NCBI GenBank assembly: GCA_031414535.1
Contig: JANNVQ010000014.1
Location: 128,001 to 192,000 of the forward strand
Length of the DNA stretch: 64,000 bases
DNA from: Gemmatimonas sp.
GTDB lineage: Bacteria > Gemmatimonadota > Gemmatimonadetes > Gemmatimonadales > Gemmatimonadaceae
Direction of reading: 5' to 3'
Below are positions 15,909 to 49,291 of this stretch, one piece after another (position 1 is the first letter of the stretch; every line of letters begins with the position of its first letter). Below the pieces are notes generated by a model. That model was not told the DNA's origin. It did no database searches and worked only from the letters and a program-made list of their open reading frames with translations. A program made the position numbers and the translations under genes.

Positions 15909-15914
15909 GGCGAA

Positions 15915-15956
15915 CGAGGCCCGGTCAGAGAAGATGACCGGGCCTCGCTGCGTTTT
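15915..15956. terminator. Intrinsic terminator between convergent genes
   Basis: 13-bp inverted repeat CGAGGCCCGGTCA-gagaaga-TGACCGGGCCTCG followed by a short T tract. Confidence 0.75.
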
Positions 15957-15977
15957 GTCGCTGACTCGAATCCGTGC

Positions 15978-19007: not shown

Positions 19008-19095
19008 TTGACTCGGGTTGGGTTCGGCCAGAACAAACTTCTGTAATTCAGAAATAGCCTAGGGAAGCTCGCCGAATTCGCGCCCGCTGTCAAAG

Positions 19096-19111
19096 CGCAT
19101 CTGTCACGCCA
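19096..19111 (-). promoter_or_regulatory. Possible sigma-54 promoter for the nuclease gene
   Basis: Minus strand TGGCGTGACAGATGCG has GG-N10-GC spacing but deviates from TGGCAC-N5-TTGC. Confidence 0.3.
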
Positions 19112-19162
19112 ATGTCTCGGTGTCTCTGGCGCGGGTACCGTAGTTGCGGACATCTTGCGCGT

Positions 19163-20023: not shown

Positions 20024-20025
20024 GC

Positions 20026-23102: not shown

Positions 23103-23903
23103 TCAGCGAAGCAATGCCGCGGCCAATAGTGGACCTGCAATCAAGCTTACAACTTGAAGAACGATGGTGCGATCCCAAGGTTGGCGCGCAGCGTCAATCA
23201 CGAGGAAGTCGCCGTCGCGCACGCCCAACTCGGCGAGCGTGCGCCCATTCACGATTGCTGAGCGGACTTCACTATTTGAAATTGTCTCGGAATTATTCCG
23301 CACCATGCGCATCCGCATCGGGTCTGCCGTCTGCAGCGGTCCACCGGCGGCCGTGAGCACGTCATCCAAACGCGCATCGAGTGGGGCGAGTTGGTAGCCC
23401 GGTTGTGCCACCGGACCGAACACGGCCACGCGCAGCAACGGCCGCACGAGCACCTCGGCGTCGCGGGCCGTGTTGCGCACGCGCGACCTCACGCGCTCCG
23501 CGGCTTCGGCGCGCAGCACACCCGTCAGCGAGACGGCCCCAAACGAGCCCACAAAAACTGTCAGGGAATCGTCTACCACCAGCGTCTCGTCGAAGGACGC
23601 ATTGCCCGATACCTTCACGATGATTCGATCGCCAGCCCTGAAATCCCCGCGCTCAAGGCGAGTACGCAGAGTCTCCGCACCACGTGTAGCCCTCGCGCGC
23701 AGACGCAATCCGTAAGCGGGCGATGCAGCAACAGCTTCGAGACGGGCCGCCTCGGCAGTGACTTCCTCACGAGAAGCGGCAGGATCCGATCCGCGAGACG
23801 CCGATTGCGCAGGGAGCGCTGCGGCGAAGAGGCTGAGAGCCGTCGAGAGTGTTCCCATCGCAAAGCGGAGGTGCGAGGTTCTCGGCGCAAAGATGCAAGT
23901 CAT
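23103..23903 (-). CDS. Polysaccharide export protein (Wza/OPX-like, SLBB domain)
   Basis: 'GDRIIVKV' Poly_export-like segment, 'VFGPVAQPG', 'LTAAGGP', 'GDFLVI', C-terminal amphipathic helix. Start is ATG 23903 or 23858. Confidence 0.75.
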   Translation of the reverse strand: MTCIFAPRTSHLRFAMGTLSTALSLFAAALPAQSASRGSDPAASREEVTAEAARLEAVAASPAYGLRLRARATRGAETLRTRLERGDFRAGDRIIVKVSGNASFDETLVVDDSLTVFVGSFGAVSLTGVLRAEAAERVRSRVRNTARDAEVLVRPLLRVAVFGPVAQPGYQLAPLDARLDDVLTAAGGPLQTADPMRMRMVRNNSETISNSEVRSAIVNGRTLAELGVRDGDFLVIDAARQPWDRTIVLQVVSLIAGPLLAAALLR

Positions 23904-24205: not shown

Positions 24206-25132
24206 GTGATTTCAACGCCAAGTGCGACCCGCCGTCCCCCGCTGACGCTCATTGCCAACGGGCAGGAGTGGAACGCCCGCTCGCTTGAGTCCATTCTCGC
24301 CCCGCACGGATACGCCGTGTTGCGCGCATACAACGGACGTCAGGCCATTGAGCGCACGCTTAGTGCGCGTCCAGACCTGATCATCATCGACACCGATCTC
24401 CCGGACCGCAGCGGATTCGACGTCTGCCGCGCGATCCGCGAGCATCCCAGCATCAGCCGGGCGACACCAATTCTCATGACTACGGCCGGCAATCCCAGTC
24501 GTGCTAAGAAGCTTGAGGCTCTACGCGCGGGCGCTTGGGAGATGCTTGGCGCAACACTCGATGCGGAGGAGCTGGTATTACGCCTCGACGCAATGATTTC
24601 GGCGAAGCTCGAAATCGATCGGGTAAAGGACGAGAGCCTGCTCGACGAGATTACTGGGCTCTACAACCTGCGCGGGCTCGATCGTCGCGCACGTGAGTTG
24701 GGCTCTCAGGCCTTCCGCGCGAAGGGTGCGCTGGCCTGCGTGGTGGTCACCCCGCTGAGCTCCGACGCCGACATTGACATCGCAAACTCGTCTGTGATGG
24801 TGCGGCTGGCCCGCGTATTGCTGCAGACCGGCCGCAATTCCGACGTGATTGGCACCATGAGCCCAGGTGAGTTCGCCATTGTTGCTCAAGGCACCGACGC
24901 CGAGGGAGCCGAGCGACTTGCGCAGCGTATTGCGGTGGCAGCCGCTGAACAGTTTGGGAACGAGTCCGTACATGTCGCGGTGGGCTACGACGCAGTGCTC
25001 GACTACTCCGAATCCCCGATTGATCCGAGCGACCTGCTTTCCAACGCGAGCGCCGCTATGCGCGCATCGCGGACGAGCGCCGTCGGGGGACAGCGCGTGA
25101 GCATCAGCCGCTTCGGCGCAATCCTTAACTAA
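24206..25132 (+). CDS. Receiver domain plus degenerate GGDEF domain protein
   Basis: REC 'PDLIIIDTDLPDRSGFDVC', 'DEITGLYN'; the GGDEF position reads SPGEF and is preceded by RNSD. Confidence 0.85.
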   Translation: MISTPSATRRPPLTLIANGQEWNARSLESILAPHGYAVLRAYNGRQAIERTLSARPDLIIIDTDLPDRSGFDVCRAIREHPSISRATPILMTTAGNPSRAKKLEALRAGAWEMLGATLDAEELVLRLDAMISAKLEIDRVKDESLLDEITGLYNLRGLDRRARELGSQAFRAKGALACVVVTPLSSDADIDIANSSVMVRLARVLLQTGRNSDVIGTMSPGEFAIVAQGTDAEGAERLAQRIAVAAAEQFGNESVHVAVGYDAVLDYSESPIDPSDLLSNASAAMRASRTSAVGGQRVSISRFGAILN

Positions 25133-27486
25133 CCGTCGCCCGGCGTCGCCTGGGAGACGCTACCTGACGGCAAGGCAGCCACCTCGTTCTGCTCGCCGGC
25201 TGCGTAGCCAGGCAGATACGAGTAGTACCGATAGGCTCCCGTCGGCTTCACATCGTTGAGCACCGCGCCGAGCACGCGGATAGACAGGCGCCGCAGATCA
25301 GCCAGGCGTGCGCTCGCGAGCTCACGGTCCGTGAGGCCGTTCCGCAGCACCAACGCGAGCGTCCCGCTCAGCGAAGCCAGCACAATTGGATCCACGCCCG
25401 CGCCCAGCGGGGGGCTGTCAATTACAATCGCTTCGTAGGTCCCGCGCACGTCCATCATCAAACGCGTCATCTGCGTGGATGAGAGAAGCTCCGGGATATT
25501 GGACCTCGGCGTACCCTTCGGCAGGAAGTCGAACTCCTCGCCCACGGGCCGCACAATCGACTCGGCTAGGCTGCTTTGACTCGAGAGGACTTCCGACAAG
25601 CCCGGACTCCGTGGGACGTTCAGCGTGCGGTGCAGGTAACCGCGGCGATTGTCACCGTCCACGAGCAAAGTCCGTCGCCCAGTAAGGGCGATGCTCTGCG
25701 CGAGCAGCAACGAGACGAACGACTTCCCGTCTCCGGCGCCCGGTGAGGAGATGGTGACGACAAACGGGCCGCCGCTCCCGTGCGCGAAGAGCAGTCCCAT
25801 TCGAATGCTGCGCGTCACCTCAACCAGCATCGCCTGGTCGTCCTCTCGCGCCTGCCCATCGCGTCCTTTGCGTAGTAGCGGAAGCGCACCGAGAATCTGA
25901 AGTCCAAGGTCTCGCGTCACCTGCTCGGGGTAGCGGATGCGCCGATCAAAACGATCTCGCAAAATGGCGAGCGTCACGCCGGATCCGAAGCCAAGGATGA
26001 ATCCGACCACAATCACTAGAACGACTTGATCGCTTACAGGGCGCGTCGGTGGCACAGCGTAGTCGAGCAAGCGCACATCCGGCGCCGAGCTCAGCTCGGA
26101 AAGTCGGGCCGATTCGTACGCGGCCTGCACTTCCTTATAAAGATTCTGTGCTACGTCCCTGTTGCGCTCGCGCCGAGATTCCTCGGTGGCGCGAAGCGGG
26201 ATTTGCTGCATCTCGCGTGACGACGCTGCAATCCGCGAGTCCAAGTCTGTGATCCGAGCCTCAAGTGCTTGCCGCAGATTCGCGGCCTGTCGCGGAATCG
26301 CCACGCGCTCAATCTCGAAAATCTCCGCTTCGAGCTGGCGCAGCGGAGGATAGGTCGATGAGAAGGCAAGGCGCATCTGCCTCGCCTCGCCGCGCTTCGT
26401 AGTGAGCAACTGCAAAGTGCCTGTCAGCTCCGAATACTCGCGCACGGCAGGAATCGCGGCCAGCGAGGCACCCAACGAGGTCGTGGTATCGCTCTGCGCC
26501 TGGAGGGCACGTTCGATGGCATCGCGGTCGCGCACGAGGTCATCGCGGTCCATCCGCAGCCGGAAGAATGCCTGCCGCACCGGGTCGCGAGTCTCCGCAA
26601 GGCCAGGCGTAATCGGCGCCGCCCCGCGATCGCTTGGCAGAGTAATGGTGTTCACCTGATACTGCTCGAGTGCGCTCTCCTCGGCTGTAAGTTTCAGGCG
26701 CGCCACCTCAAGCTGCTCGCGTAAGGCCTCGGTAACGGTCGTCAGCTTCTCACGCTTGAGCTGCGTCGCGACTTCAACAAACTGATCCGCAATCGTATTG
26801 ACCAGCCCCGCCGTGTTGGACGCATCGTATCCGCGGAGCGAGAGCTTCAGCAGGGCGCCGTCCAAAGGAAGCACGGGCTCCATCTCATTGTTCAGGCGCA
26901 CGGCCGCGTCGCGAGGAGACCGAACGCGGAACCGCACCTCCAGCCCGCCGGGTGACGGAGGCGTCCACAGAAGCCCGACCGGGCGACCGAGGGAATCACC
27001 CGCCGGAGCCGAGTCCAAGAGGGTCCCCTCGACGGAACTGAGCCGATTGGTCCCCGCACCGTCACTGCTGAACACGTACTCGCCCCAGCGGGCTTCCGGT
27101 GCAATTGCAAAGGTAGAGAAGAAGCGCCAGTCGGTGGACGCTGCCGGCTCGAGATACAGTCGCCGCTTGCGCACCACCTCGTCGAGGACCGCGTAGGAGC
27201 GCAGCAACTCAATCCAACCGCGGCCTTCAAAGAGCGGTGCGCTACGTAAGGGATTGGCCGCGCCGAAGCTGCGGGTCGCTACCGGCACTTGGAGCGAGGC
27301 CTGCGCTTCATACACGGGCTGCAGGAGCCGAGACAAACCAGCGCCAGCTAAGAGACCGCCGAAAGTGAGCGCCAGAATCAGGACGCGCTGACGCCAGATG
27401 GCCGACCAGAGCCGCCGGAAGTCGATTGCCTCGTCTTCGTACAGATAGTCACTTCCGGCTTTCGACTGAGGCTTGGTGGACGGCAT
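25129..27486 (-). CDS. wzc: Polysaccharide co-polymerase / tyrosine autokinase
   Basis: Two TM helices flanking a coiled-coil periplasmic region; Walker A 'SSPGAGDGKS', 'LLVDGDNRR', 'IVIDSPP'; C-terminal Tyr cluster 'AYRYYSYLPGY'. Confidence 0.93.
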   Translation of the reverse strand: MPSTKPQSKAGSDYLYEDEAIDFRRLWSAIWRQRVLILALTFGGLLAGAGLSRLLQPVYEAQASLQVPVATRSFGAANPLRSAPLFEGRGWIELLRSYAVLDEVVRKRRLYLEPAASTDWRFFSTFAIAPEARWGEYVFSSDGAGTNRLSSVEGTLLDSAPAGDSLGRPVGLLWTPPSPGGLEVRFRVRSPRDAAVRLNNEMEPVLPLDGALLKLSLRGYDASNTAGLVNTIADQFVEVATQLKREKLTTVTEALREQLEVARLKLTAEESALEQYQVNTITLPSDRGAAPITPGLAETRDPVRQAFFRLRMDRDDLVRDRDAIERALQAQSDTTTSLGASLAAIPAVREYSELTGTLQLLTTKRGEARQMRLAFSSTYPPLRQLEAEIFEIERVAIPRQAANLRQALEARITDLDSRIAASSREMQQIPLRATEESRRERNRDVAQNLYKEVQAAYESARLSELSSAPDVRLLDYAVPPTRPVSDQVVLVIVVGFILGFGSGVTLAILRDRFDRRIRYPEQVTRDLGLQILGALPLLRKGRDGQAREDDQAMLVEVTRSIRMGLLFAHGSGGPFVVTISSPGAGDGKSFVSLLLAQSIALTGRRTLLVDGDNRRGYLHRTLNVPRSPGLSEVLSSQSSLAESIVRPVGEEFDFLPKGTPRSNIPELLSSTQMTRLMMDVRGTYEAIVIDSPPLGAGVDPIVLASLSGTLALVLRNGLTDRELASARLADLRRLSIRVLGAVLNDVKPTGAYRYYSYLPGYAAGEQNEVAALPSGSVSQATPGDG

Positions 27487-31242: not shown

Positions 31243-32304
31243 GTGACGGTCTCGCCAATTTCTGACGAATCCCCTAGAGAACGCCCGCCGGTACGCGCCG
31301 GTGGGCGTTCTCGTCTGTTAGTGATTGCCGCCTCGGCCTTGCTCGCGCTCGCGGCAGTTGATCTCGTGGTGCGGCGGGTGGCGCCGCCGCGCAATCTGCG
31401 CGAGGTCCAAGATGCCGTGAAGGAACTTGAGCGCAACGACCCCACCGTCCTCGCCATCGGCTCCAGCCACGCGCGCACCTTCGCTGTCCTTGCGGATTCG
31501 CTGGCCGCGCGCACCGCGGGGCGCGAGCGATTGCTGGCGGTGCCTGTGGAATGGGGCAAGCTGAGCTCCTACCGCTGGACGCTCGAGGAACGCCTCCTCC
31601 CGCTCTTCGACGAGCGGAATGCCGCTGGGCAGGTACGTCGCGGCAAACTGCGCCGTGCCATCATCGTCACCGAGTGGTGGGACTCCTGCGCGGGCTCAAG
31701 CCAGCCCCAGAACCTTCCAGCGCGCGCTTGGGCTTGGCGGCACTATTGGGATGACCTCGGCCGCAACGGATTCTCCGACTACAACTCAAGCTTCCTGAGT
31801 TATCGCCTTTCTCGATTGACGCGTTTCTCGGCCCTCATGCAGGACCGCGGACGCACGCGATTCCCGACGGCGCTTCGCGAAGCGCTTGTGCCTGGGCCGG
31901 CCCGCGAAGAAACCAGCGGATATCGCGACCAGATGGCGAACTGGCAGGTGCTCGTCGAGAGTGGCGACAAATGCATCGGCGACCAAGCCCAGATGGAGTC
32001 GCTCGTGGCGATAGTAGACACGCTCCTGGCGCGCCGCCTAGATGTGACGGTGCTCTTGTATCCGCGCATGCCAAGCACGCTCACTCCGACGGCACGGCAG
32101 ACGACCCTGCCCCGCTTCCTCGCCCTCGCCCAAGCGGCCTTGCGCGGGCGTCCGGTGCGCGTGCTCGATCTCACCGATGTCGCGCCCTTAACAGACGCCG
32201 ACTTTGGCGAGGATTTCGATCACCTTCTGCCGGCGGCGAACGCACGCTTTTCTGGCTGGGCTTTGGATGGTCCTTTTGCGTTCTTGCTTGAGGGCACGCG
32301 ATGA
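31243..32304 (+). CDS. Membrane-anchored SGNH-like (DltD/AlgJ-like) acyltransferase partner
   Basis: One N-terminal TM; 'IGSSH' block I and C-terminal 'DFDHL' (DxxH); ATGA overlap with the MBOAT gene. Confidence 0.65.
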   Translation: MTVSPISDESPRERPPVRAGGRSRLLVIAASALLALAAVDLVVRRVAPPRNLREVQDAVKELERNDPTVLAIGSSHARTFAVLADSLAARTAGRERLLAVPVEWGKLSSYRWTLEERLLPLFDERNAAGQVRRGKLRRAIIVTEWWDSCAGSSQPQNLPARAWAWRHYWDDLGRNGFSDYNSSFLSYRLSRLTRFSALMQDRGRTRFPTALREALVPGPAREETSGYRDQMANWQVLVESGDKCIGDQAQMESLVAIVDTLLARRLDVTVLLYPRMPSTLTPTARQTTLPRFLALAQAALRGRPVRVLDLTDVAPLTDADFGEDFDHLLPAANARFSGWALDGPFAFLLEGTR

Positions 32305-33716
32305 CTCCCACGAGTGTGGCATTCGCGCTGTTAGTGCTGACCGCCCTACTCCTGCACTGGACGGGTCCTCACACCTCCCGGTGGCAGAATAGCGTCCTGC
32401 TGGGGTCGAGTGCCCTCTTCTACTGGTCCTGGTCGCCCGCTTGGCTGCCGGTGCTCGCGCTGTCCACGCTCGTGGATTTCTGGGCCGCACGGAAGATTGG
32501 CGATGCCACCGGGGCCCCAACCCTGCGGCGATTCGCGCTCTGGTTAGGCCTTGGCAGCAACCTCGGCGTACTGCTGTGGTTCAAATACGCAGGCTTGCTG
32601 CTCGACTCTGGTTCACTCGCGCTGCCGATCGGCCTCTCGTATTACACGCTCATTCGTGTTGGCTATCTGCTCGACCTGCGCTACGGACGAATCGTGGCTG
32701 AGCGCTCGCTGCTGAACTTTGCGACGTTCATTTGGTTTTTCCCTCAGATGGTCGCGGGCCCCATCACTCGCGCCCGTGCGATGTTGCCGCAGTTCTCGTC
32801 CGCCCGTTCGTGGCGCGACGTGAATTTCGGGAGTGCTGCCGCCGCGTTATTGCTCGGCTGGACGCTCAAGGCTTACGTGGCCGACTGGATTGGGCCCGCG
32901 CTCGTGGAGCCCGTGTTTGCCTCAAGTGCAAGGTTTGGCGCGGCGGCCCACTGGCTCGCGTTAGTGAGTTACGCACTGCAGGTCTTTGGCGACTTCGCCG
33001 GCTACTCACTACTCGCCATCGGCGTGGCCGCGCTCTTTGGCATGTCGCTGCCCGTCAACTTTGACCGTCCCTTCCTCAGCCGGTCGATGCCGGAGTTCTG
33101 GCGGCGTTGGCATATCACGCTCAACACATGGCTCTTTGACTACGTGTTTGGGCCGCTGACCACGGGCGGCGGAGTGCTTCATGGACGCATCGCCTACAAC
33201 CTCGTGTTGATTTTCATGATCTCCGGGCTTTGGCACGGCGCGGAGTGGACCTTTGTGATCTGGGGACTGCTACACGGCCTGGCGCTCGCGGCGCACCACG
33301 GCTGGGATGTGTGGTACCGCGCGCAGTGCCGTCGCGACCGACGCTTCGTGACTGTTCGGAAGTCCGGCGCCTATGCATGGGCGGCTTGGGTGCTCACACA
33401 GGGCTGGTTCTTGGGCTCACTGGTTCTTTTCAAGAGTAGTGACCTCGCAAGCGCGGGTCGGTACCTCGGCGCACTCTTCGTCGCCGAGGGCACCGCATTC
33501 CCCTCGCTGGACTCCATGGCGCTGGCGAGCCTCCTCGGAGCCTTGCTGGTTGTCGCCTGGCATCATGCTGAGGGTTTGAGCTTAGGCGCGAGGCTGCGCG
33601 CGCGGTTTGACGCACTCCCTGCCCCGGTGATTGGCGCGGTCTTGGGGCTCGGGCTCGCGTGGTTGCTCATCTTCGCCCCCTTGGCCCGCACTAGCTTCAT
33701 TTATGCTCAGTTTTGA
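32301..33716 (+). CDS. MBOAT family O-acyltransferase (AlgI/DltB-like)
   Basis: 'LPIGLSYYT', 'FFPQMVAGPI', 'DFAGYS', 'FWRRWHITL', 'SGLWHGA.W'; C-terminus 'FIYAQF'. Confidence 0.93.
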   Translation: MTPTSVAFALLVLTALLLHWTGPHTSRWQNSVLLGSSALFYWSWSPAWLPVLALSTLVDFWAARKIGDATGAPTLRRFALWLGLGSNLGVLLWFKYAGLLLDSGSLALPIGLSYYTLIRVGYLLDLRYGRIVAERSLLNFATFIWFFPQMVAGPITRARAMLPQFSSARSWRDVNFGSAAAALLLGWTLKAYVADWIGPALVEPVFASSARFGAAAHWLALVSYALQVFGDFAGYSLLAIGVAALFGMSLPVNFDRPFLSRSMPEFWRRWHITLNTWLFDYVFGPLTTGGGVLHGRIAYNLVLIFMISGLWHGAEWTFVIWGLLHGLALAAHHGWDVWYRAQCRRDRRFVTVRKSGAYAWAAWVLTQGWFLGSLVLFKSSDLASAGRYLGALFVAEGTAFPSLDSMALASLLGALLVVAWHHAEGLSLGARLRARFDALPAPVIGAVLGLGLAWLLIFAPLARTSFIYAQF

Positions 33717-33718
33717 CT

Positions 33719-33982
33719 ATGCATAGCGACGCTGAACTCCGGCACGTGATCGTCGAGTGGCTGGACGACCAGTACCACTTTGGCGATGCCAGCTCGCTCA
33801 TCAAAAGTGACGAGCAGTCCTTCTTGGATACGGGAGTGCTGACCAGTCTTGGGTTCGTGCAGTTGGTGCTGTTTCTCGAAGGCAAGTTGCACATCGTCAT
33901 CGAACGCGGCGCACTGACCCGCGAGAACTTCGACGGCATGGGCAAGATTCTCGCCTTTGTGCGAGCCTGCCGGCTGCGCTGA
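33719..33982 (+). CDS. Stand-alone acyl carrier protein
   Basis: Small acidic protein with 'SFLDTGVLTSLGFVQLVLFLE' and 'ENFD' motifs; Ppant serine codon at 33845. Confidence 0.85.
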   Translation: MHSDAELRHVIVEWLDDQYHFGDASSLIKSDEQSFLDTGVLTSLGFVQLVLFLEGKLHIVIERGALTRENFDGMGKILAFVRACRLR

Positions 33983-35946
33983 TGGATTCAGACGTTCTGT
34001 GGAATCCTGATCCTGCTGTAGCCTCGACATCGCAACTCGGGGCCTTCCAGCGCTTCTGCGAGCGTGAGACGGGCGAGGCGTTGACGAGTTGGCAGGACTT
34101 CCACGCGTTCTCGGTAAGGCGCTTCGAGGACTTCTGGAATCTATTTCTGCGCTGGAGCGGCGTCCGCACGAGCGGTGAACCGAGCCCCGTCTGCACGTCG
34201 CGCGATGTGGAGTCGGCAAGATTCTTCCCGAATGTTCGGCTGTCGTTCACGGAGTCTTTGTTGAGCGGGGCCGGCGTTGCGGATGAGGCGGCGGCCATCG
34301 TTGTCTGCAGCGAGGGGAGGCCGCCGCGCACGGTGACGCGTGGCGAACTCCGCTCGCGCGTGCGGCGCCTCGCTCGTGCATTGACGGCCCTCGGCGTCGG
34401 GCCAGGCAGCCGAGTAGCCGGACTCACGTCGCACGACGACGACACTATTGCGGTGGCGCTGGCCGCCGTTGGAATTGGCGCCACGTGGTCTGCATGTGGG
34501 CCAGAGCTCGCGGCAGATGCGGCGGTGGCGCGCTTCAGCGTCTTTGCACCCACGCATTTGGTTCTCAGCGTACAGACGCCGCGCGCAGATGCCGGGGATG
34601 AACCGTTGGCGCGCGCGCGCCATGTGGCCGCCCGTCTTCCCTCGCTGGTTCAGACCTTGCTGATTGGTCCCGATGCGGCCGCCGAGGCTATTGCCGAGGC
34701 TCTTTCGAACTGGCCGCAGGCTTGCGCGCCGCTCGCGCCACTGGAGCAGGCGCAGTCGGATGGTGCGTTTGAGTGGCCGCTTTTCGCGTTCGATCATCCG
34801 CTCTACGCGCTCTTTTCCTCGGGCACGACCGGCCCGCCAAAGGCCATCGTGCACGGTGCAGGCGGCACCTTGCTCGAGCATCTCAAGGAGCACAGGCTGC
34901 ACGGGGATCTTGGGTCGACTGACCGACTCTACTTCCAGACATCCTGTGGCTGGATGATGTGGCACTGGACGGTTTCGGCCCTCGCCACCGGCGCCTCAAT
35001 CGTTACCTACGATGGTTCGATTGCGGCCGATGGACCCGACACACTCTGGCGACTCGCCTCCGATACGCGCGTCACCGCGCTCGGGATTTCACCCAGCTTC
35101 GTCCAATACCAACGAAGCACGGCGGTGCATCCGCGCCGCCACGATCTCGCGGCGCTCCGGCTCGTGCTCTCCACGGGCTCAATTCTCTTCGACCGCGACT
35201 TCGACTGGCTGCATGAGCAGCTCGGTCCGCTACCCATTCACTCCATCTCTGGTGGCACGGACATCATCGGATGCTTCGTGCTCGGCAATCCGACTCTCCC
35301 TGTGTACCGAGGAGAAAGTCAATGCATCAGCTTGGCGATGGATGTACAGGCCGTTGCTGATACGGACGGCGGCCCAGACGAGTTGGTGTGCGCGAATCCG
35401 TTTCCGTCGCGGCCGGTTGCGTTCTTGAATGACTCGGACGGGACGCTGCGGCACGAGGCCTACTTCGCGCAGCGCCCGGGGTTGTGGACACACGGAGACT
35501 TTGTCGCTCTGCGTCCGCGCGGCTCAGCGCGCGTGCTCGGGCGCGCCGATGGCGTGATGAAAGTGCGTGGTATCCGCATCGGTCCAGCCGAACTCGTTGG
35601 CATCGTGGAGGCCTTGCCAGAGATTGAGGCCGCGATGGCCGTGGCCCAAGATGCGCCCGACGAACCCGGTGGTGCGCGCATCGTGCTTCTGGTGGTGCTC
35701 CGCGAGGGCGAGGTGCTGGACCGCGCGCTCACGTACCGCATCAAGCGGGCGGTGCGCGACGGCGCATCAGCCGATCACGTGCCATCACGCGTGGTAACGG
35801 TTCCCGCATTGCCCGTGACACTCAACGGCAAACGCTCAGAGCGCGCGGCACGTGACATCGTAAATGGTCGCACACCGGCGAATCTCGCCGCCCTGCGCGA
35901 CCCAGACCTCGCCGCGCGAATTAGCGAGGCGCTGCGACGGGAGTGA
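33982..35946 (+). CDS. Acetoacetate-CoA ligase family adenylating enzyme
   Basis: 'FSSGTTGPPKAIVHGAGG.LLEHLKEH', 'GWMMWHW', 'SISGGTDI.GCF', 'W.HGD', 'GR.DG', 'P.T.NGK'. Confidence 0.88.
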   Translation: MDSDVLWNPDPAVASTSQLGAFQRFCERETGEALTSWQDFHAFSVRRFEDFWNLFLRWSGVRTSGEPSPVCTSRDVESARFFPNVRLSFTESLLSGAGVADEAAAIVVCSEGRPPRTVTRGELRSRVRRLARALTALGVGPGSRVAGLTSHDDDTIAVALAAVGIGATWSACGPELAADAAVARFSVFAPTHLVLSVQTPRADAGDEPLARARHVAARLPSLVQTLLIGPDAAAEAIAEALSNWPQACAPLAPLEQAQSDGAFEWPLFAFDHPLYALFSSGTTGPPKAIVHGAGGTLLEHLKEHRLHGDLGSTDRLYFQTSCGWMMWHWTVSALATGASIVTYDGSIAADGPDTLWRLASDTRVTALGISPSFVQYQRSTAVHPRRHDLAALRLVLSTGSILFDRDFDWLHEQLGPLPIHSISGGTDIIGCFVLGNPTLPVYRGESQCISLAMDVQAVADTDGGPDELVCANPFPSRPVAFLNDSDGTLRHEAYFAQRPGLWTHGDFVALRPRGSARVLGRADGVMKVRGIRIGPAELVGIVEALPEIEAAMAVAQDAPDEPGGARIVLLVVLREGEVLDRALTYRIKRAVRDGASADHVPSRVVTVPALPVTLNGKRSERAARDIVNGRTPANLAALRDPDLAARISEALRRE

Positions 35947-37072
35947 TGTTGTGAAAGCGCTTCTGACGTGAGGTCTGCCACGGCGCATCGGAGCGGAGCA
36001 CTTCCAAGAACTGCTCCGCGCTGCGACCGTCGCCAAAGTGCTGCGAAGGAGCCACGCCAGACGGCAGGTTGGTGAGCACCTGCTTGATGGCCCCGGCTTC
36101 CGCTGGCACGTTCACGATTGACGGATATATAAACCGGTCAGACTGCCGCGTCCCCACGTTCACCGTGGGGACGCCATAGACCGGCGCCTCGCGAATCCCG
36201 GCGCTGGAGTTTCCGACAATCGCCTGGGCGTGCTTCAGCAGCGAGAGGAAGTACTCAAAGCGCATGGACGGCAGCATGCGGAAGCGGGGATTCCCCTCGA
36301 AGGTCTTGTAGTGCCGCAGGATGATATCGGCGCCAAAGTCGTTGTTGGGATACACCACCACGAAGTTCCGCCCCGACTCCACGGCGGCCCGCACGATCTC
36401 CGCGCTCTGGACCTCCAGCTGGTCGTGTTCCGTCGTGACCGGGTGGAACATCAGGATGCAGTGCTCGTCGAACGGAATCTCGTAGCGCTCGCGCACCACA
36501 GCCATCGTCGGCAGTGTGTCGCCGAGCATGACGTCAATGTCTGGCGAGCCAATCACGAAGATGGACGAGGGCTGCTCACCCAACTGCACGAGGCGATCGC
36601 GCGCTTCATCGTTGGCCACGAAGTGTAGGTGCGACAGCTTCGTCACCGCGTGCCTAATGAGATCATCAATGGTCCCCGAGATCTCGCCACCCTCGATGTG
36701 CGCCACGAGGATGTTATTCAGCGAGCCCACAATTGCGCCGGCAAGCGCCTCGATCCGATCGCCGTGCACGACAAGCAGATCGGGCGTGGCCTCGCGCACG
36801 TAGTGGCCGAGGCCCTGCACTGTCGTCGCAAGCACGAGATCCATCTGCGACGTCACTGCACCGTCCTGATTCACGAACGGATGGATGCGGTCGAACCCGG
36901 CATCGCGAATCTCCTTCACCGTGCGGCCGTACCGGGCGAGCATATGCATCCCAGTGGCGAAGATGTCGTACTCTAGCCCCGGTGTCGCCTTCACGCTGGC
37001 GATGAGCGGCTTGATTTTTCCAAAGTCGGCGCGCGTGCCGCTCAGGAAGAGAATGCGGCGGGTAGTGGTCAC
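35921..37072 (-). CDS. neuC: UDP-N-acetylglucosamine 2-epimerase, hydrolysing
   Basis: 'GTRADFGK', 'TGMH', 'HGDRIE', 'HIEGGE.SGT.DD.IRHA.TKL', 'GNSS.GIREAP'. Confidence 0.92.
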   Translation of the reverse strand: MTTTRRILFLSGTRADFGKIKPLIASVKATPGLEYDIFATGMHMLARYGRTVKEIRDAGFDRIHPFVNQDGAVTSQMDLVLATTVQGLGHYVREATPDLLVVHGDRIEALAGAIVGSLNNILVAHIEGGEISGTIDDLIRHAVTKLSHLHFVANDEARDRLVQLGEQPSSIFVIGSPDIDVMLGDTLPTMAVVRERYEIPFDEHCILMFHPVTTEHDQLEVQSAEIVRAAVESGRNFVVVYPNNDFGADIILRHYKTFEGNPRFRMLPSMRFEYFLSLLKHAQAIVGNSSAGIREAPVYGVPTVNVGTRQSDRFIYPSIVNVPAEAGAIKQVLTNLPSGVAPSQHFGDGRSAEQFLEVLRSDAPWQTSRQKRFHNITPVAAPR

Positions 37073-38124
37073 GCCGAGGCGCCGAGCGCCGGGTTGACGT
37101 CAGCAAAGCGAAGCTGCGCGTTCTTGGGGATTGCGCTCGTCGCCGTGCGGCCGAGCAGGGATTCGAAGTGCACGGCCTTGATCTCGCCAGTGCCGGGACG
37201 CTTCACCCACACGTTCTCGCGCGTGAGCTTGCCGCCAGCGGGGATGTCCTCTATTGCCACGACGCATGCGTAGGCGAAGTCAATCGTCGGCTGTTCTTCC
37301 GGCAGGATGGTCTTACCGCCACCGAGCGCGGCGTGCACGGCGCGGGTACCACGTACCAAGTCGCCGAGTTCGGCTGGATCGAGCGAGATTGGCACGTCGG
37401 GGCCGGGCCAAGACTTGTCGCTCGTGAAGTGCTTCTCGAGGATGCTCGCACCCAGCGCGACGGCGGCGAAGCAGGTGTAGTTGCCAAGCGAGTGGTCGCT
37501 GAGGCCGAGCACAGCGTCGGGGAATGCGGCGGCGAGATCGCCGATGCCGCCGAGGCGCACGCGCTCGTAGGGCGTGGGATACATGGACGTGCAGTGCAAC
37601 AGGGCGTAGGGCACCTTGGCCTGACGCAGGATTTCCACCGACGGCGCAACGCTCGCGATGTCGTTCATGCCGGTGCTGAGAATAATCGGCTTGCCATACG
37701 ACGCAATGTGGCGAATGAGCGGGTAGTTGTTGCACTCGCCCGAGCCAATCTTGTACGCCGGCACACCCATGGACTCAAGTCGCACGGCGGCCGCCCGCGA
37801 GAACGGCGTGCTCAGGAACATCAAGCCTTTGGACTGGGTGTACGCCATCACCTTGCGCTCCTCGGCCTCCGTGAGCGCACAGCGCGACATGATGTCCCAG
37901 ATGGATTCCTTGGCGTTTCCGGGAATCACGTTGTTGGGGATCATTTCATCCTCAATCACATGACTCTGGAACTTGGCGCACTCCGCCCCGACTGCGGCGG
38001 CATCGTCCACCATCTGGATGGCCTTGTCGAGGCTACCCTCGTGATTGATGCCGATTTCGGCAATGACGAACGGGGGATGGTCTGGACCGATGTCGCGGTC
38101 TTGGATGCGGAGTGAGGGTGCCAT
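37069..38124 (-). CDS. neuB: N-acetylneuraminate (nonulosonate) synthase
   Basis: 'IAEIGINHEG', 'KFQ', 'KIGSGE', 'STGM', 'HCTSMYP', 'SDH', 'EKHFT' and C-terminal SAF domain 'KRPGTG'. Confidence 0.95.
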   Translation of the reverse strand: MAPSLRIQDRDIGPDHPPFVIAEIGINHEGSLDKAIQMVDDAAAVGAECAKFQSHVIEDEMIPNNVIPGNAKESIWDIMSRCALTEAEERKVMAYTQSKGLMFLSTPFSRAAAVRLESMGVPAYKIGSGECNNYPLIRHIASYGKPIILSTGMNDIASVAPSVEILRQAKVPYALLHCTSMYPTPYERVRLGGIGDLAAAFPDAVLGLSDHSLGNYTCFAAVALGASILEKHFTSDKSWPGPDVPISLDPAELGDLVRGTRAVHAALGGGKTILPEEQPTIDFAYACVVAIEDIPAGGKLTRENVWVKRPGTGEIKAVHFESLLGRTATSAIPKNAQLRFADVNPALGASA

Positions 38125-38168
38125 AGCCGAGAAGGTTAGCAGTTCAGGCCAAGGCGGCGAAAGTGCAG

Positions 38169-39197
38169 CTAGGCACCGATTCGCCGAAGGGCCTCGACCT
38201 CGGCGAGCCAGTCCGCCGGAACCTTGCCGAGGACGGCCGACACGCCATTCAGCAGGGCTCGGCGCGTGGCCTCCGGGGCGGCGCCCTCGGCGTCCCAAAT
38301 GATGGGCGCGCCGAAGACGCTGCGAAGCGCGAAGGCAGGCTCAGCGTCCTCGGCGTTCCGCGCAGGAAAGCCGCCGCAGAGCACTGCGCTCGTCGGACGT
38401 CCCGGACCTAGAGCGTCGAGGTAGGCCTCAATAGCGGGCCCGAGCGCCAATCCGCGTAGGTCGAGGCTCGCTTCCCGGCCCTCGGAGCCGGCGGGTGCTT
38501 CGCTCCAGGCGGCAAGGCGCGCCCGCTGGAGGTCCTGCGCGGAATCAATGTCCACGGACGCCGCTGCATCCATCGAGACGCCCAGAGTAGTGCCAGCCAC
38601 GAGGAACGCGCGATGGCGCTCGAGCTCGTCGAGGCGCGTGACGTACACGGCCCCGTTCGGCCACAAGGCCACGGGATTGTCCTGGCGCCGCGTGCTGATG
38701 GGTGCAGCGCCGAGCGCGAAGGAGAGCGGCTGGGAGTCGCCGCCGTACATCGCGAGAGCAATCGGGTGACTGGCTTCGATGACCGTGACTGCCGATGGCG
38801 CGCCTGCGGCCTGCGCCGCATTCCAGCACGCGCTAACATGTTCGGCGCGGCGCATGGGCGAGGTGGGCTGGAGCAGGATCAGCCACTGGGCCTCGCGTTC
38901 GAGCCGGTTCCAGGCGTGGAGCACGTTGTCCACGGTCTGCGTGGTGTCGGCGGCGAGTTCGCTGGGACGGAGGAATGGCAGCTCGCCTCCCCAGCGCCGT
39001 CCTTCCGCCCCAATCTGCTCACCGTCGGTGTCCACCAAGATCCGTGCGCGATCTTCAAGACCACTCGTACGCAGGAAGGCGCGTGCGGCGAGTACTGCGC
39101 GCCCCACCAGACTCACACCGGCGACGCTTGCGAGGTTCTTTCCCGGCAGGCCTTTGGAGTTGGCGCGGGCGGGAATCAGCAGCAGCAAGTCACGCAT
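38169..39197 (-). CDS. neuA: CMP-nonulosonic acid synthetase with C-terminal extension
   Basis: 'IPARANSKGLPGKN', 'FLRP.ELA.D', 'LQPTSPMR', 'NGAVY', 'DID...D'. Confidence 0.9.
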   Translation of the reverse strand: MRDLLLLIPARANSKGLPGKNLASVAGVSLVGRAVLAARAFLRTSGLEDRARILVDTDGEQIGAEGRRWGGELPFLRPSELAADTTQTVDNVLHAWNRLEREAQWLILLQPTSPMRRAEHVSACWNAAQAAGAPSAVTVIEASHPIALAMYGGDSQPLSFALGAAPISTRRQDNPVALWPNGAVYVTRLDELERHRAFLVAGTTLGVSMDAAASVDIDSAQDLQRARLAAWSEAPAGSEGREASLDLRGLALGPAIEAYLDALGPGRPTSAVLCGGFPARNAEDAEPAFALRSVFGAPIIWDAEGAAPEATRRALLNGVSAVLGKVPADWLAEVEALRRIGA

Positions 39198-40953
39198 GGC
39201 GGGTGGATTCGGAGAGGAGACGTTGAATCTCGGCGACGGCGCGCGCACTGCACTCGCCGTCGAGAGGACCGAGGAAGTCCGGATCATTGGGTGGAGGCAG
39301 TGGCTGCTTGGCAGCCGAGGCGGCGAGCGTCTTCAGGTGGCGCTCCAGCGAGGCATCGTCGGTCGCGCGCAGGCCTCGGAGGTTCACGAACGAATCGGGA
39401 ATGGGCTGCCCCGTGAAGTCCACGAGGAGCAACTGTCGCCCGAGGATGTCGGCCTCGAAGGCCACGCTCGAGGTCTGCACCATCACGATGTCGCTCAGCT
39501 GGATGAGTGTGTCAATGAGTACATCGGCGGCGAGCACCATGCGAGTGCGAGGCGTGGCCGCCGCGAGCTGGTGGTGTACCGTCTGATCCTCGGACGGATG
39601 GGGGCGCAGCACTAGGAACAACTGCGGTATGCGCAACACGGACTCCACCACGCGACGGACAAAAGCAGCATCCTGCCCGTACTGGGTGGCAAAGAGCAGA
39701 ATCGGGCGATCACTGGGGAGCGCCAGCGCCTCGCGCTTGACTCCCACATCCGGTGACTGCTCGCCGCGGCGCATGGCATCGTACCGCGGCTGGCCGACGA
39801 TGACGGTCCGATCCTCGGCGAAGCCGTCCGCTTCGAGGAGGCGTTTCAGGTGGCGTCCATTCGTGCCGATGCGGTCCGCCGTCAGCCAGCGCCACTGCGG
39901 CATGTCGGCGGCGATGCCGTCCTGCAGGCAGAAGGTCGGAATGCCCTTCGCGCGCGCCGCGAGCACCCACGCGGAACCAACCCACCAGCGATCATTCCCC
40001 ACCACCACCTCCCGAGGCGGCGCCTTAGCTATGCGCTTGGCGACGGCCTCGAAGTGCGCTTCTTGCCTCGGCAGGTGCAACTCAATGGCGCTGATTGACG
40101 CGCGCAGCACCGTTCCGGCGCCGCCGGCGGGCAACTTCGGCGTCGCAGCGGACCACAGGGCGTCACGTAGCGCGGCCGCTGACTGTGAACTCTCATGTGC
40201 AAGGGGCTCGCAGAGCGCGAGGGGAGAGATGGAGGACGCCGCGTGGTGGAGGTGTTCAACGTCCGAAAGGCCTGCGCGGCGAGCAGCGCCGTGCACGGCC
40301 TCCATCATCAGGTCCATCGGACGCGTCCACGAAATGAGAAGCGTGCGCCCCGCCGTGGACGGAGTCGGCGAATCCAACGCCGGCGCCGATGCCGTGGGCA
40401 TCGCGGGCCGCGAAATCATGCGTGCAGCGAGCGAAAGCAGGCGCGAAGCGCGCAACGATAGGCCATATTCCGCCGCATCCGTGACGAGCGCGTGCGCGAG
40501 AGCGCTGTCCAGTGTGAACAATCGAACTGCCTTGATGCCCACCGAAGCGACGTGGCGGCACAGGGCTGACATCAGCTCAAAGCGGCGGAGGTCTTCCTGC
40601 AGGTCCAAGGCGTTGAACAGCAAGAGGCGATCGCCGAGTTCGAGCGAGGCGGGCGCATCGAGGGACATGAGTCCGCGAGACAGGGCCAGAGTGCGTGCGT
40701 CGGCGTCGCGCCTCGCGGCGTCCGGCAGCGCATTGAAGAGCGAACGGCGCGGCACCCGCGGCAAAACCTGAGCCAAGTCGAGGGCACCGCCGCCGGGCGA
40801 GTAGATAACAAGTTCGCTGGGAGCGGCGCGAAAGCCGGCCCCCAGCCGGAGAGCCTCGCGCAAGAACGCGCGCCCGCGTTCAGATCCGCGCCAGTCAATC
40901 AGCCAGAGGGACCCGTTTGCGTCAGTCGCCAATCCCCCGCGCGCGTCGTTCAT
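39190..40953 (-). CDS. GT-B fold capsule-biosynthesis protein, putative nonulosonate (sialyl) transferase
   Basis: 'LQDG', 'GQPRYD', 'LFATQ', 'LRPHPSE', 'SSVAFEA', 'DG..SAR' motifs; first gene of the neuA-neuB-neuC run. Confidence 0.55.
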   Translation of the reverse strand: MNDARGGLATDANGSLWLIDWRGSERGRAFLREALRLGAGFRAAPSELVIYSPGGGALDLAQVLPRVPRRSLFNALPDAARRDADARTLALSRGLMSLDAPASLELGDRLLLFNALDLQEDLRRFELMSALCRHVASVGIKAVRLFTLDSALAHALVTDAAEYGLSLRASRLLSLAARMISRPAMPTASAPALDSPTPSTAGRTLLISWTRPMDLMMEAVHGAARRAGLSDVEHLHHAASSISPLALCEPLAHESSQSAAALRDALWSAATPKLPAGGAGTVLRASISAIELHLPRQEAHFEAVAKRIAKAPPREVVVGNDRWWVGSAWVLAARAKGIPTFCLQDGIAADMPQWRWLTADRIGTNGRHLKRLLEADGFAEDRTVIVGQPRYDAMRRGEQSPDVGVKREALALPSDRPILLFATQYGQDAAFVRRVVESVLRIPQLFLVLRPHPSEDQTVHHQLAAATPRTRMVLAADVLIDTLIQLSDIVMVQTSSVAFEADILGRQLLLVDFTGQPIPDSFVNLRGLRATDDASLERHLKTLAASAAKQPLPPPNDPDFLGPLDGECSARAVAEIQRLLSESTRHA

Positions 40954-41000
40954 ACGTCGCGGAGGATAGATGATCCCACGACACTCCGCCAGCCCAAGCG

Positions 41001-42458
41001 ATGAGCGCGCGCAAAGGATTCGCACGGCACACCATTATCTACGGCGCCGGCATCGTCATCAGCCGCCTCGTCTCGTTCGTGATGTTGCCCGTTTATACCC
41101 GCTATCTGACGCCGGCGGACTACGGAGTGATGGCGCTGTTGGATATGACGCTCGACATCGTGGCTATCGTGGCGGGTGCCAAGATTGCCGGCGGCGTCTT
41201 CCGTTTCTATTACAAGGCGACTGATGACGAGTCGCGCAAGCGCGTAGTCTCCACGGCGATGCTGCTGCTCGGAGCATCTTTCGCCCTGCTCGCCCTCATC
41301 ACGGGCCTGCTAGCCGAACCGGTCGCGCGGCTCGCCTTCGGCACCGCCGAACACGCGACGCTCGTGCGCGTTGGTGCCGCCAGCTTGGGCCTCCAGGGCT
41401 TCGTGATCGTCCCGCTGGCACTGGTACAGCTTCAGCAGCGCTCCGTGGCGTACACTGCCATCACGACGTTCAAGATGTTCATGCAGCTCGGCCTCTCAGT
41501 CTTGTTCCTCGTGCACTTCGAGATGGGCGTGCTGGGCATTCTCACGAGCACGCTCGTGGCCAACGCGGTGGTGGCGACAGGTTTGGTGATCTATTCCATC
41601 CGCCAAGTCGGGCTCAAGTTCTCACCCCCACTCGCCACGGCGCTTGTGGCCTTTGGATTGCCGCTGGTGGGCACACAGGTCGCCACCTTCACCTCGACCT
41701 TCGCCGACCGCTACTTCATCAACGCCTTCGTGGATAGTGCGGCAGTCGGGCTCTATAGCTTGGGATACCAATTTGGATTCCTGCTTGTGGCCGTGGGCTA
41801 TTCTCCCTTCGCCATGTTCTGGGAACCGGAGCGCTTTCGCGCGGCCGAGCAGCCAGACCGGGATGCGCGATTCCAACGCGCACTGCTCTTCGCGAGCCTC
41901 CTGCTCGCGACAGTCGCAGTGGGCATCGGGATTTGGGTGGAGGACGTACTCCGAATCATGGCCACCCCCGCGTACCGGCCGGCCGCACGCATCGTACCGC
42001 TACTGCTCGTGGCATACTCGCTCCAAGGGTGGAGTGCGTTCATGGAAGCCGGCATCCTTATCCGGGAACGTACGGGAATCATCGCAGCAGCCAATTGGAC
42101 CGCCGCGCTCTCCAGCCTCGCCGCAAATGCCGTTCTCGTGCCGCGCTTTGGCATGTTGGGCGCCGCTTCGGCCACCGTCATCGCGTTTGGTCTCCGCACG
42201 ATGCTCATTCACTACTGGGCACAACGTCTGTACTTCGTCCCTTTCGATTGGCGACCCACGCGGATGCTCGCGCTGCTGGCGGCTACAACGGTCACGGCGT
42301 CGTACCAGCTACCCGAACTCCAGTTGATGTACTCCGTCCCCATTCGCCTCGCACTGCTCGGCGCCTTTGCACTCGCGGTATGGCAGCTGAAAATCTTGCC
42401 GGAGGCTGAGGTACGGACTCGCCTGCTCGGTCTGCGGGCGCGATTTATTGGGCCGTAA
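41001..42458 (+). CDS. wzx: Oligosaccharide flippase
   Basis: Many TM helices; 'LPVYTRYLTPADYG', 'DRYFI', 'VGLYSLG', 'VPRFG.LGAA.AT'. Confidence 0.88.
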   Translation: MSARKGFARHTIIYGAGIVISRLVSFVMLPVYTRYLTPADYGVMALLDMTLDIVAIVAGAKIAGGVFRFYYKATDDESRKRVVSTAMLLLGASFALLALITGLLAEPVARLAFGTAEHATLVRVGAASLGLQGFVIVPLALVQLQQRSVAYTAITTFKMFMQLGLSVLFLVHFEMGVLGILTSTLVANAVVATGLVIYSIRQVGLKFSPPLATALVAFGLPLVGTQVATFTSTFADRYFINAFVDSAAVGLYSLGYQFGFLLVAVGYSPFAMFWEPERFRAAEQPDRDARFQRALLFASLLLATVAVGIGIWVEDVLRIMATPAYRPAARIVPLLLVAYSLQGWSAFMEAGILIRERTGIIAAANWTAALSSLAANAVLVPRFGMLGAASATVIAFGLRTMLIHYWAQRLYFVPFDWRPTRMLALLAATTVTASYQLPELQLMYSVPIRLALLGAFALAVWQLKILPEAEVRTRLLGLRARFIGP

Positions 42459-42460
42459 CT

Positions 42461-43573
42461 CTAGGGATTCGCGAGGTAGAGGCGTTCGTACTCGCGGGCC
42501 ATCCGCTCGGCGCTGTAGCGCTCATCAAAGCGGCGGCGCGCGCTGGCGCTGAAGCGCGCGCGCCGAGCGGCATCGCCGAGGACCGTCGCGAGTCCCGCCT
42601 CGAGCGCGGGCACATCCTTCGGTGGCACCAACCAAGCCGACTCATCGTGCTCCAGCGCGTCTGGCACGCCGCCCACCGCCGTCGCCACGACTGGACACCC
42701 GACCGCCATCGCCTCAAGAATCACCATCGGCAAACCCTCCCACAGCGACGGCAGCACGAAGACGTCGAAGGCCTGCAGGAGCTCCGCGACATCTCGGCGC
42801 ACGCCGAGGAAGCGCACCGTGCCATCGAGGCCCAACGCGCTTGAGCGCGCGCGCAGCTCAGCGTCCAACTCACCATCGCCGGCGATGAGCACCTGCAGCC
42901 CCGGAAAGCGTGCGGCCAATCCCACCGACGCCTCAAGCAAGTAGGAAATGCCCTTTTGCTCGGCGAGCCGCGAGGCGAAGCCAATCACGGGCGCGTCGGA
43001 CGCGATCCCAAGTGCGGCGCGCACGGCCGCGCGCTGGCCGCGCGCCGCGTACTTTCCGCCCTCGATGCCGTTGATGATGGTGCGCAGCTTGCGTTCGGGG
43101 ATCTTCTCATAGCGCCGCAGGTTCTCCGTCGTGTGCTCCGACACGCCAACCATAGCGCGCGCAAAGTACGACAGGACGTGCTCCGAGAGCATGTGGCGGA
43201 ACATGTCGGGGAAGGGACGCGCGTGATCGGTGTGGATCACCACGGGCGTTCCCGCCATCAGTGCGCCAATCGTTCCGTTGACAAACGGTTCGGTGTTGTG
43301 CGTGTGAATGACATCAATCTTTTGCGCGCGCAGTACGCGGGCCACGCGACGAAACGCGAAGTAGTCCGGACGTCCCTCGGGCCGCTCAAGCTCAATGACG
43401 CTGAAGCCGTCGGCCTCAAGCGAGTCGGCGAGCGGCCCCTTGCCCCGCAAGCAGAGCACTGAGACCTCAAAGCGCGTCGGATCAATCGTGCGGCACAGCG
43501 TTTCCACCACCCGCGGCAGTCCACCGACCCCGAGGTCGTGCGTTACCTGCATCACCTTCAATCGGGGCGTCAC
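42461..43573 (-). CDS. Glycosyltransferase family 4
   Basis: 'GVGG', 'HTH', 'NGI', 'RL.EQKG', 'PSLWEGLPMVILEAMA'; GTG start overlaps the upstream stop. Confidence 0.92.
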   Translation of the reverse strand: MTPRLKVMQVTHDLGVGGLPRVVETLCRTIDPTRFEVSVLCLRGKGPLADSLEADGFSVIELERPEGRPDYFAFRRVARVLRAQKIDVIHTHNTEPFVNGTIGALMAGTPVVIHTDHARPFPDMFRHMLSEHVLSYFARAMVGVSEHTTENLRRYEKIPERKLRTIINGIEGGKYAARGQRAAVRAALGIASDAPVIGFASRLAEQKGISYLLEASVGLAARFPGLQVLIAGDGELDAELRARSSALGLDGTVRFLGVRRDVAELLQAFDVFVLPSLWEGLPMVILEAMAVGCPVVATAVGGVPDALEHDESAWLVPPKDVPALEAGLATVLGDAARRARFSASARRRFDERYSAERMAREYERLYLANP

Positions 43574-49145: not shown

Positions 49146-49291
49146 GGCAGCTGATTGAGTGGAAGGGCAAAACCTGTGTTCTGGAGCAAGTGACTTAGCC
49201 GTTGCCCTAGTCAGCCTTGCGGCAGATGCGTCCAACCCCCAAATCTAGACCGGGTGACAGCGCGCTGACAGCATTGGAAGGAGCGTATGGA

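Follow-up and report, generated by a model that had tools for sequence, protein, structure and literature searches.

Known acylation machines and the locus under study

The Dlt pathway of teichoic acid D-alanylation relies on an adenylating enzyme, a dedicated carrier protein, a membrane-bound O-acyltransferase (MBOAT), a tyrosine shuttle of the FXYXXF type and a membrane-anchored SGNH protein (PMC12148441). A second kind of machine, to which PatA/PatB, AlgI/J/X and WssH/I belong, combines an MBOAT carrying a fused hexapeptide with an SGNH partner and serves envelope polymers; PatA acetylates the tyrosine of its C-terminal F-x-Y-x-x-F motif, and this 2025 mechanistic paper describes the MBOAT/SGNH pathways other than Dlt as fed by acyl-CoA, with no carrier protein (PMC12148441). 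We analyzed a stretch of 64,000 nucleotides from Gemmatimonas sp. (contig JANNVQ010000014.1, positions 128,001 to 192,000; hereafter the window), in which four genes encoding an SGNH protein, an MBOAT, an acyl carrier protein (ACP) and a ligase of the acetoacetate-CoA ligase family form a cassette inside a glycan locus. This cassette appears to join the two known machines, since it would work like Dlt with a PatAB/AlgIJ architecture plus a carrier. With modest confidence, and on comparative grounds, we read it as an MBOAT/SGNH relay that depends on a carrier and would attach a C4 acid of the ketone-body type to a surface glycan by O-acylation; the degrees of confidence given below for the loading of the ACP, the acceptor and the acid are not independent of each other.

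Other described systems resemble parts of the cassette. The ligase shares its fold, adenylation motifs and acyl-pocket residues with acetoacetyl-CoA synthetase (EC 6.2.1.16; TIGR01217; PDB 4wd1; S. meliloti AcsA2), but differs by its membership of a carrier-fusion clade, a decayed CoA loop, a biosynthetic context and the presence elsewhere in the genome of a paralogue in a catabolic context. The viosamine island of Pseudomonas syringae (acp, vioS, vioR, vioB) also has a dedicated ACP within a glycan cluster and is a precedent for an ACP-borne C4 group on a sugar; the proposal there is that the ACP provides this group first as acetoacetyl and then as 3-hydroxybutyryl (PMC3927599). In that island a FabH-like synthase makes the C4 unit, which ends as an amide on a nucleotide sugar, whereas the cassette is predicted to adenylate a free acid and to link it as an O-ester in the periplasm. 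The exopolysaccharide of Rhizobium leguminosarum bears O-(3-hydroxybutanoyl) esters, as given by a reference title (PMID 2033051, in PMC6628131); no search of rhizobia for the cassette was made, and we saw no link between these esters and it. An earlier, preliminary description of the window knew of no characterized pathway with this enzyme combination; a literature search, with most subscription papers outside its reach, likewise found no description of the cassette. The module is real, conserved and, in the literature searched, uncharacterized. It appears to be an exception to the statement quoted above from PMC12148441, since its PatA-type MBOAT would receive the acyl group from an ACP. The tyrosine shuttle would thereby extend to an acyl group that is neither acetyl nor an amino acid, and the cassette is a candidate for the synthesis of C4 esters on glycans.

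Organization and distribution of the cassette

The cassette lies directly downstream of the gene for a priming glycosylphosphotransferase (PF02397; 30502-31227, + strand), the SGNH open reading frame (ORF) beginning 15 nt past its end among the window ORFs. All on the + strand, there follow the genes for the membrane-anchored SGNH protein (31243-32304, ORF of 353 aa), putatively the final acyltransferase in the DltD/PatB role, the MBOAT (32301-33716, 471 aa) with its own C-terminal acyl-shuttle hexapeptide FIYAQF, the ACP (33719-33982, 87 aa from its ATG, or 89 aa from an alternative TTG at 33713) and the ligase (33982-35946, 654 aa). The four ORFs are translationally coupled, with stops and starts that overlap or almost touch, so that the four coupled genes right after a priming transferase, as first described, are indeed present. 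The GC content of the cassette is that of its surroundings, and a scan for promoters and terminators was uninformative (one promoter-like site against 0.8 expected and three terminator-like sites against 5.2).

Eight genome loci from a search with the SGNH protein, 51 metagenome loci from a search with the SGNH alignment and two further genome regions made up a set of 61 loci, from which six were dropped as duplicates, leaving 55; locus L120, from an unpublished genome, was left out. The MBOAT gene comes after the SGNH gene in 42 of the 46 loci with room for it (39 of 42 without duplicates), the ACP gene is next in 31 of 33 (29 of 31), and the ligase gene is next in 26 of the 31 loci long enough (24 of 29). 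The linkage of the ligase to the MBOAT and the ACP, which the preliminary description had put up for checking, is by these counts conserved across lineages and not due to chance. Named records of the cassette belong to Gemmatimonadota, Eisenbacteria (partial), Myxococcota and one Deltaproteobacteria metagenome-assembled genome, to which homologues of the ACP add a Vicinamibacteria-named record. The distribution is patchy: the SGNH profile matched 4 of 401 genomes of the phylum, and a 58-59% identical ligase was found in 2 of 24 members of the genus, most others giving matches of only 40-46%. Rearrangements were seen in L075, where one of two SGNH-MBOAT pairs is followed by the ACP and the other by the ligase, and in L102, where ACP-ligase is convergent with SGNH-MBOAT. 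In L081, a gene for a 2032-aa adenylation-polyketide synthase (PKS) protein (14732-20827) stands directly after the ligase.

The ligase and its carrier

The ligase scores above the cut-off of TIGR01217 (576 bits, cut-off 521) and below that of NF002937 (597, cut-off 639), and its best PDB match is 4wd1. Its best-matching family is acetoacetate-CoA ligase, whose motifs the preliminary description had noted; no DltA model is among its best 25 family matches, and it is therefore not a D-alanine ligase of the DltA type. The motifs WMMW, STGS and SISGGTD and the residues D506, R521 and K617 are conserved, giving an acetoacetate-type pocket with its adenylation motifs. Active-site columns were defined by Salmonella Acs numbering transferred via the genome's own Acs, with roles of R584 and of the acyl-pocket residues that we take as those usual for the family. 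The acyl-pocket and adenylation columns are identical inside and outside the clade that contains the cassette ligases. In a FastTree phylogeny of 187 sequences, from which duplicates and fragments were excluded, this clade unites the cassette ligases (25 of 25), the fusion proteins (36 of 36) and seven further representatives (support 0.999). The housekeeping-type copies, 23 in number, branch outside it, as do the S. meliloti and Streptomyces plasmid-collection sequences. With IQ-TREE on a 34-sequence subsample, the ultrafast bootstrap of the clade was 85 and rose to 100 once the sister sequence P0141, which retains the CoA loop, was included. Among the 40 best matches of the ligase, drawn from 50%-identity representatives, 33 bear a PP-binding domain (E 1e-4 or better), one more has a weak one and six stand alone; most of the carrier-fused relatives also have a thioesterase, and some a hexapeptide or GNAT domain.

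The residues which contact CoA were mostly lost in the clade. A CoA-binding role is described for R191 and R194 (bioRxiv 10.64898/2026.07.06.736832). At the R194 column, K or R is present in 1 of 25 cassette ligases, 6 of 36 fused proteins and 105 of 116 outside sequences, at the R584 column in 6 of 25, 6 of 36 and 102 of 116, respectively, and the CoA-loop pattern Y.[YFW].G[KR] occurs in none of the 25 cassette ligases versus 71 of the 116 outside sequences, the latter group being assumed to use CoA. Taken together, the clade, the fusions and the lost CoA contacts make it highly likely, at the level of sequence comparison, that the cassette ligase loads the ACP and not CoA, as had been proposed earlier for the activated acid.

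According to the opposite explanation, the cassette enzyme would be one more ordinary CoA ligase in the genome, the MBOAT and the SGNH protein would use acyl-CoA or acetyl-CoA like PatAB/AlgIJ, and the ACP would be incidental. It would fit the TIGR01217 score, the R592 kept by the window enzyme at the R584 position, the PatA/AlgI architecture of the MBOAT and the search of four Myxococcota/Deltaproteobacteria genomes (incomplete assemblies), each of which had the ligase as its sole match with an E value of 1e-60 or lower, but we consider it very unlikely, given that 31 of 33 loci encode an ACP, with an invariant serine, between the MBOAT and the ligase, a gene content different from the acyl-CoA donor without carrier of the PatAB/AlgIJ kind, that the nearest relatives of the ligase are fused to carrier domains and its CoA loop is decayed, and that no cassette-type ACP was found within ~1.5 kb of 12 other MBOAT loci of the phylum. 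A catabolic role for the cassette ligase was ruled out by the trees, the decayed CoA loop and the existence of a separate paralogue, a second copy in the same genome (43% identity) beside HppD- and HmgA-like (homogentisate-dioxygenase) genes; whether the enzyme groups with catabolic ligases, a question raised by the preliminary description, is answered in the negative by both trees, which place it in a separate carrier-associated clade.

Other members of the clade form their own architectures. In P0073, P0089, P0092, P0095, P0080 and P0117 the ligase is fused to a carrier together with a hexapeptide acyltransferase, GNAT or thioesterase-GDSL domain, which suggests several other acyl-transfer outputs. 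Plasmid genes of Caballeronia (L103, 11947-15015) and Cupriavidus (L104, 9938-13027) that are annotated as acetoacetate--CoA ligase are adenylation-thiolation-thioesterase (A-T-TE) fusions, and glycan genes are not among their annotated neighbours. The proteins of this clade labelled acetoacetate-CoA ligase in databases, these A-T-TE fusions included, are probably carrier-loading biosynthetic enzymes.

The ACP ORF alone gave no Pfam match, and its NCBIfam matches to AmcB and DltC were weak and below cut-off. Its identity is established by the family profile, which matched peptidyl carrier proteins, DltC and PltL in the PDB, and by the attachment serine S43, invariant like WLDD in 33 ACP sequences; the profile has a single match in the genome, and the protein corresponds to the dedicated carrier of the Dlt pathway. 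In L076, L084 and L086, an AcpS gene is found directly upstream of the SGNH gene. In the window, a HetI/Sfp-like phosphopantetheinyl transferase (PPTase; PF01648, PF22624; 21117-21818, - strand) is a candidate for priming the ACP, although a nearby nonribosomal peptide synthetase or PKS may be its client instead. Such alternative clients exist on the same contig just past the window, adjoining the far end of the glycan locus: a formyltransferase/adenylation/luciferase-like/carrier protein (L109, 5957-10630) and a type I PKS (L109, 10647-16397).

The MBOAT and the SGNH protein

The MBOAT ORF matches PF03062 and its sequence ends in FIYAQF, as initially read. The catalytic H312, which aligns with H336 of DltB, and F466, Y468 and F471 are invariant across 34 cassette MBOATs, as in the PatAB/AlgIJ kind, and all 47 rows (duplicates included) have the hexapeptide as part of the MBOAT itself. 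The protein is thus of the PatA/AlgI type, with the Tyr motif on its own C-terminus, and consequently no DltX is needed. DltB and DltC are among the PDB matches of the MBOAT and of the ACP profile, respectively, but a true dlt operon is ruled out by the family model scores, namely the family of the ligase and the 166 bits of the MBOAT against the DltB model TIGR04091 (cut-off 375). The likeness to Dlt first described holds for the adenylating enzyme, the carrier, the MBOAT and the SGNH protein; a separate DltX and the DltA and DltB types are not shared. The host also differs, being diderm, with a locus containing Wza, Wzc and Wzx for a Wzy/Wzc-type glycan that would take the place of teichoic acid.

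Comparison with other MBOATs of the phylum (13 were returned and one from an unpublished genome was left out, leaving the 12 mentioned above) revealed departures at two motifs: GG[NS][RK] is present in 1 of 34 cassette MBOATs versus 11 of 12 others, and a basic insertion in 34 of 34 versus 0 of 12. Judged by these motifs, the cassette MBOATs are a distinct subtype. A comparison of the contacts with DltC (cf. PMC11035591) was dropped as evidence because the column of DltB R317 is Arg in cassette MBOATs and also in ordinary ones. In a relative from the genus, an ordinary MBOAT and GDSL pair (L003, 1186-3768) lies inside the cassette's glycan locus, and therefore both kinds of acylation can coexist.

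Although the SGNH ORF alone had no Pfam match, 43 of the 57 aligned members of its family match PF13472, G73-S74-S75-H76 and D324/H327 are invariant in the alignment of these 57 sequences, and the structure model (pLDDT 91.7) has SGNH folds as Foldseek matches; the SGNH-like protein with GSS...DxxH of the preliminary description is thereby confirmed. A single strong hydrophobic helix is predicted near its N-terminus (residues 25-43), which makes it, with its Ser-Asp-His triad, the adjacent membrane-anchored SGNH protein of the PatAB/AlgIJ kind. Because the database copy has 327 aa, the true start may be downstream of the annotated one. The family profile found no solved structure by sequence, and the protein atlas clusters are unnamed or DUF1574/LB_356. 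The window contains two more SGNH/AlgX-like genes (43570-44676 and 47991-49235, - strand), which have no MBOAT of their own, since the genome gave one MBOAT match; their products may be partners of the cassette MBOAT or esterases.

Nature of the activated acid

Ketone-body genes adjoin the cassette in 6 of the 55 non-duplicate loci, in three lineages whose SGNH proteins are 35-42% identical. In L048, genes for an archaeal-type 3-hydroxy-3-methylglutaryl (HMG)-CoA synthase, a thiolase and an OB-fold partner immediately precede the cassette, and those for 3-oxoacid CoA-transferase A and B immediately follow it; the whole array is on a single strand within a glycan operon. The same upstream trio is present in L089, and a divergent HMG-CoA synthase and thiolase in L057/L058; HMG-CoA lyase with CoA-transferase A and B lies directly upstream in L067/L068, HMG-CoA lyase adjoins the cassette in L065, and CoA-transferase subunit B is one gene away, at the contig end, in L061. 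These six do not include L056, whose thiolase cluster is on the opposite strand and 32% identical. Run as a rough control against the 3.7 Mb genome, these queries had a single match, so that chance would provide, as an estimate and not a formal test, well under one such neighbour in 55 loci. All three sets of neighbour genes have acetoacetate as their shared metabolite. These neighbours give comparative support to the acid named in the preliminary description (acetoacetate, 3-hydroxybutyrate or similar), and we regard it as likely that the activated acid is a ketone body.

Another acid could be carried onto the glycan by the same ACP-MBOAT-SGNH relay, for example lactate, glycerate, 3-hydroxypropionate or HMG, the latter either by release from HMG-CoA or by synthesis on acetoacetyl-ACP through the HMG-CoA synthase encoded next to the cassette. 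Clade-specific substitutions point that way, such as R477, fixed in all 25 cassette ligases at a position that is M in 80% of outside sequences, as does the HMG-CoA synthase of L048, L089 and L057, where no lyase was seen at the locus. We nevertheless find it unlikely that the acid is one of these, since the Acs-mapped pocket columns are unchanged, L065 and L067/L068 encode beside the cassette a lyase that breaks HMG-CoA down, and acetoacetate remains the shared metabolite.

Within the favoured ketone-body reading, acetoacetyl-CoA synthetases are also able to activate 3-hydroxybutyrate. A MaoC-SDR gene located two genes downstream in L063, and present in no other locus nor in this genome, fits a reduction to the 3-hydroxybutyryl group. 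For acetoacetyl-CoA synthetase, the excerpt of PMC5596199 states activation of acetoacetate only. That the glycan carries the unreduced acetoacetate ester, forming a reactive beta-ketoester coat, is a tentative and rather doubtful idea; such a coat could chelate metals or condense with amines. We know of no natural acetoacetyl ester on a bacterial glycan, the term itself not having been searched.

On the same contig, some 10-19 kb before the window, two adjacent genes encode a 1262-aa double-SDR protein (L108, 1289-5074) and a 1786-aa AMP-binding/enoyl-CoA-hydratase/zinc-dehydrogenase protein (L108, 5111-10468), architectures which resemble those of malonyl-CoA reductase and propionyl-CoA synthase of 3-hydroxypropionate metabolism.

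The acceptor

The host locus encodes CpsB, WecB, Wza, Wzc, Wzx, glycosyltransferases, an O-antigen-ligase-family protein, a NeuC/NeuB/NeuA-like block and the PPTase. The priming transferase occupies the same upstream position in L001, L002, L003 and L008, and glycan genes were found within 10 kb in 14 of 22 annotated non-duplicate complete cassettes (L001, L003, L008, L048, L061, L063, L068, L071, L076, L077, L081, the weakest, L086, L100 and L101), the scan having covered the nearer neighbours out of 242 ORFs called. A periplasmic Wzy/Wzc-type glycan is, on this context, quite probably the acceptor. The ester on an exported glycan in the periplasm, as claimed at first, is thus supported by the glycan locus found here, although some loci give no indication of a glycan acceptor.

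The relay may be real and have a different acceptor, that is, a lipid-linked sugar, a glycolipid, a glycoprotein glycan or peptidoglycan. The remaining 8 of the 22 cassettes (L004-L007, L056, L062, L074, L078) had no glycan genes among the scanned neighbours, L004-L007 are surrounded by two-component genes, L004-L006 also have lgt at a distance of several kb upstream, and a GT-C-type membrane protein often comes after the ligase. This explanation appears improbable when set against the position of the cassette right behind the priming transferase in this genome and its relatives, the recurrence of a shared glycan gene set around it in other lineages and the envelope polymers on which characterized MBOAT/SGNH pairs act (PMC12148441). 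The GT-C-type protein is encoded just downstream of the ligase in L001, L003, L008, L061 and L068; the window homologue, a PMT_2-like membrane protein 33-35% identical to these (56338-57723, + strand; PF13231 match weak here and stronger in homologues), is 20 kb downstream and is possibly a fifth partner, displaced in the window.

Proposed mechanism

In the relay that we favour, a PPTase would prime Ser43 of the ACP, and the ligase would adenylate acetoacetate, possibly 3-hydroxybutyrate, and thioesterify the ACP instead of CoA. With His312 as the intermediate station, the MBOAT would transfer the ACP-borne acyl group to its own hexapeptide, at Tyr468, by a chemistry analogous to that of PatA and DltB/DltX, and the serine of the anchored SGNH protein would then accept it and esterify a hydroxyl of the putative Wzy/Wzc-type glycan in the periplasm. 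The final group would be acetoacetyl, or 3-hydroxybutyryl if reduced first.

Several observations weigh against this reading. There are no ketone-body genes beside the window cassette, nor in 49 of the 55 loci, many of which are short, and no match to ScoA/B or to an archaeal-type HMG-CoA synthase was obtained in this genome, where acetoacetate could be supplied by leucine or tyrosine breakdown; other small acids may also fit the conserved pocket. In L054, L059 and L075 the gene after the ACP is not that of the ligase, and the downstream genes are missing in L083 and L092. To these are added the cassettes with no glycan neighbours, the R592 that the window ligase keeps in spite of its lost CoA loop, and the assumed CoA use of the outside sequences.

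Neighbouring features of the window

A sialic-acid-type block (35921-41025, - strand), with a hydrolysing NeuC above cut-off, a NeuB-like protein, a cytidylyltransferase and a putative transferase, is convergent with the cassette; it was not found in L001, L003 and L008. On the other side of the cassette, Pfam matches identify a Wza-like gene for polysaccharide export (23103-23903, - strand) and a Wzc-like gene (25129-27486, - strand), between which lies a regulator gene on the + strand.

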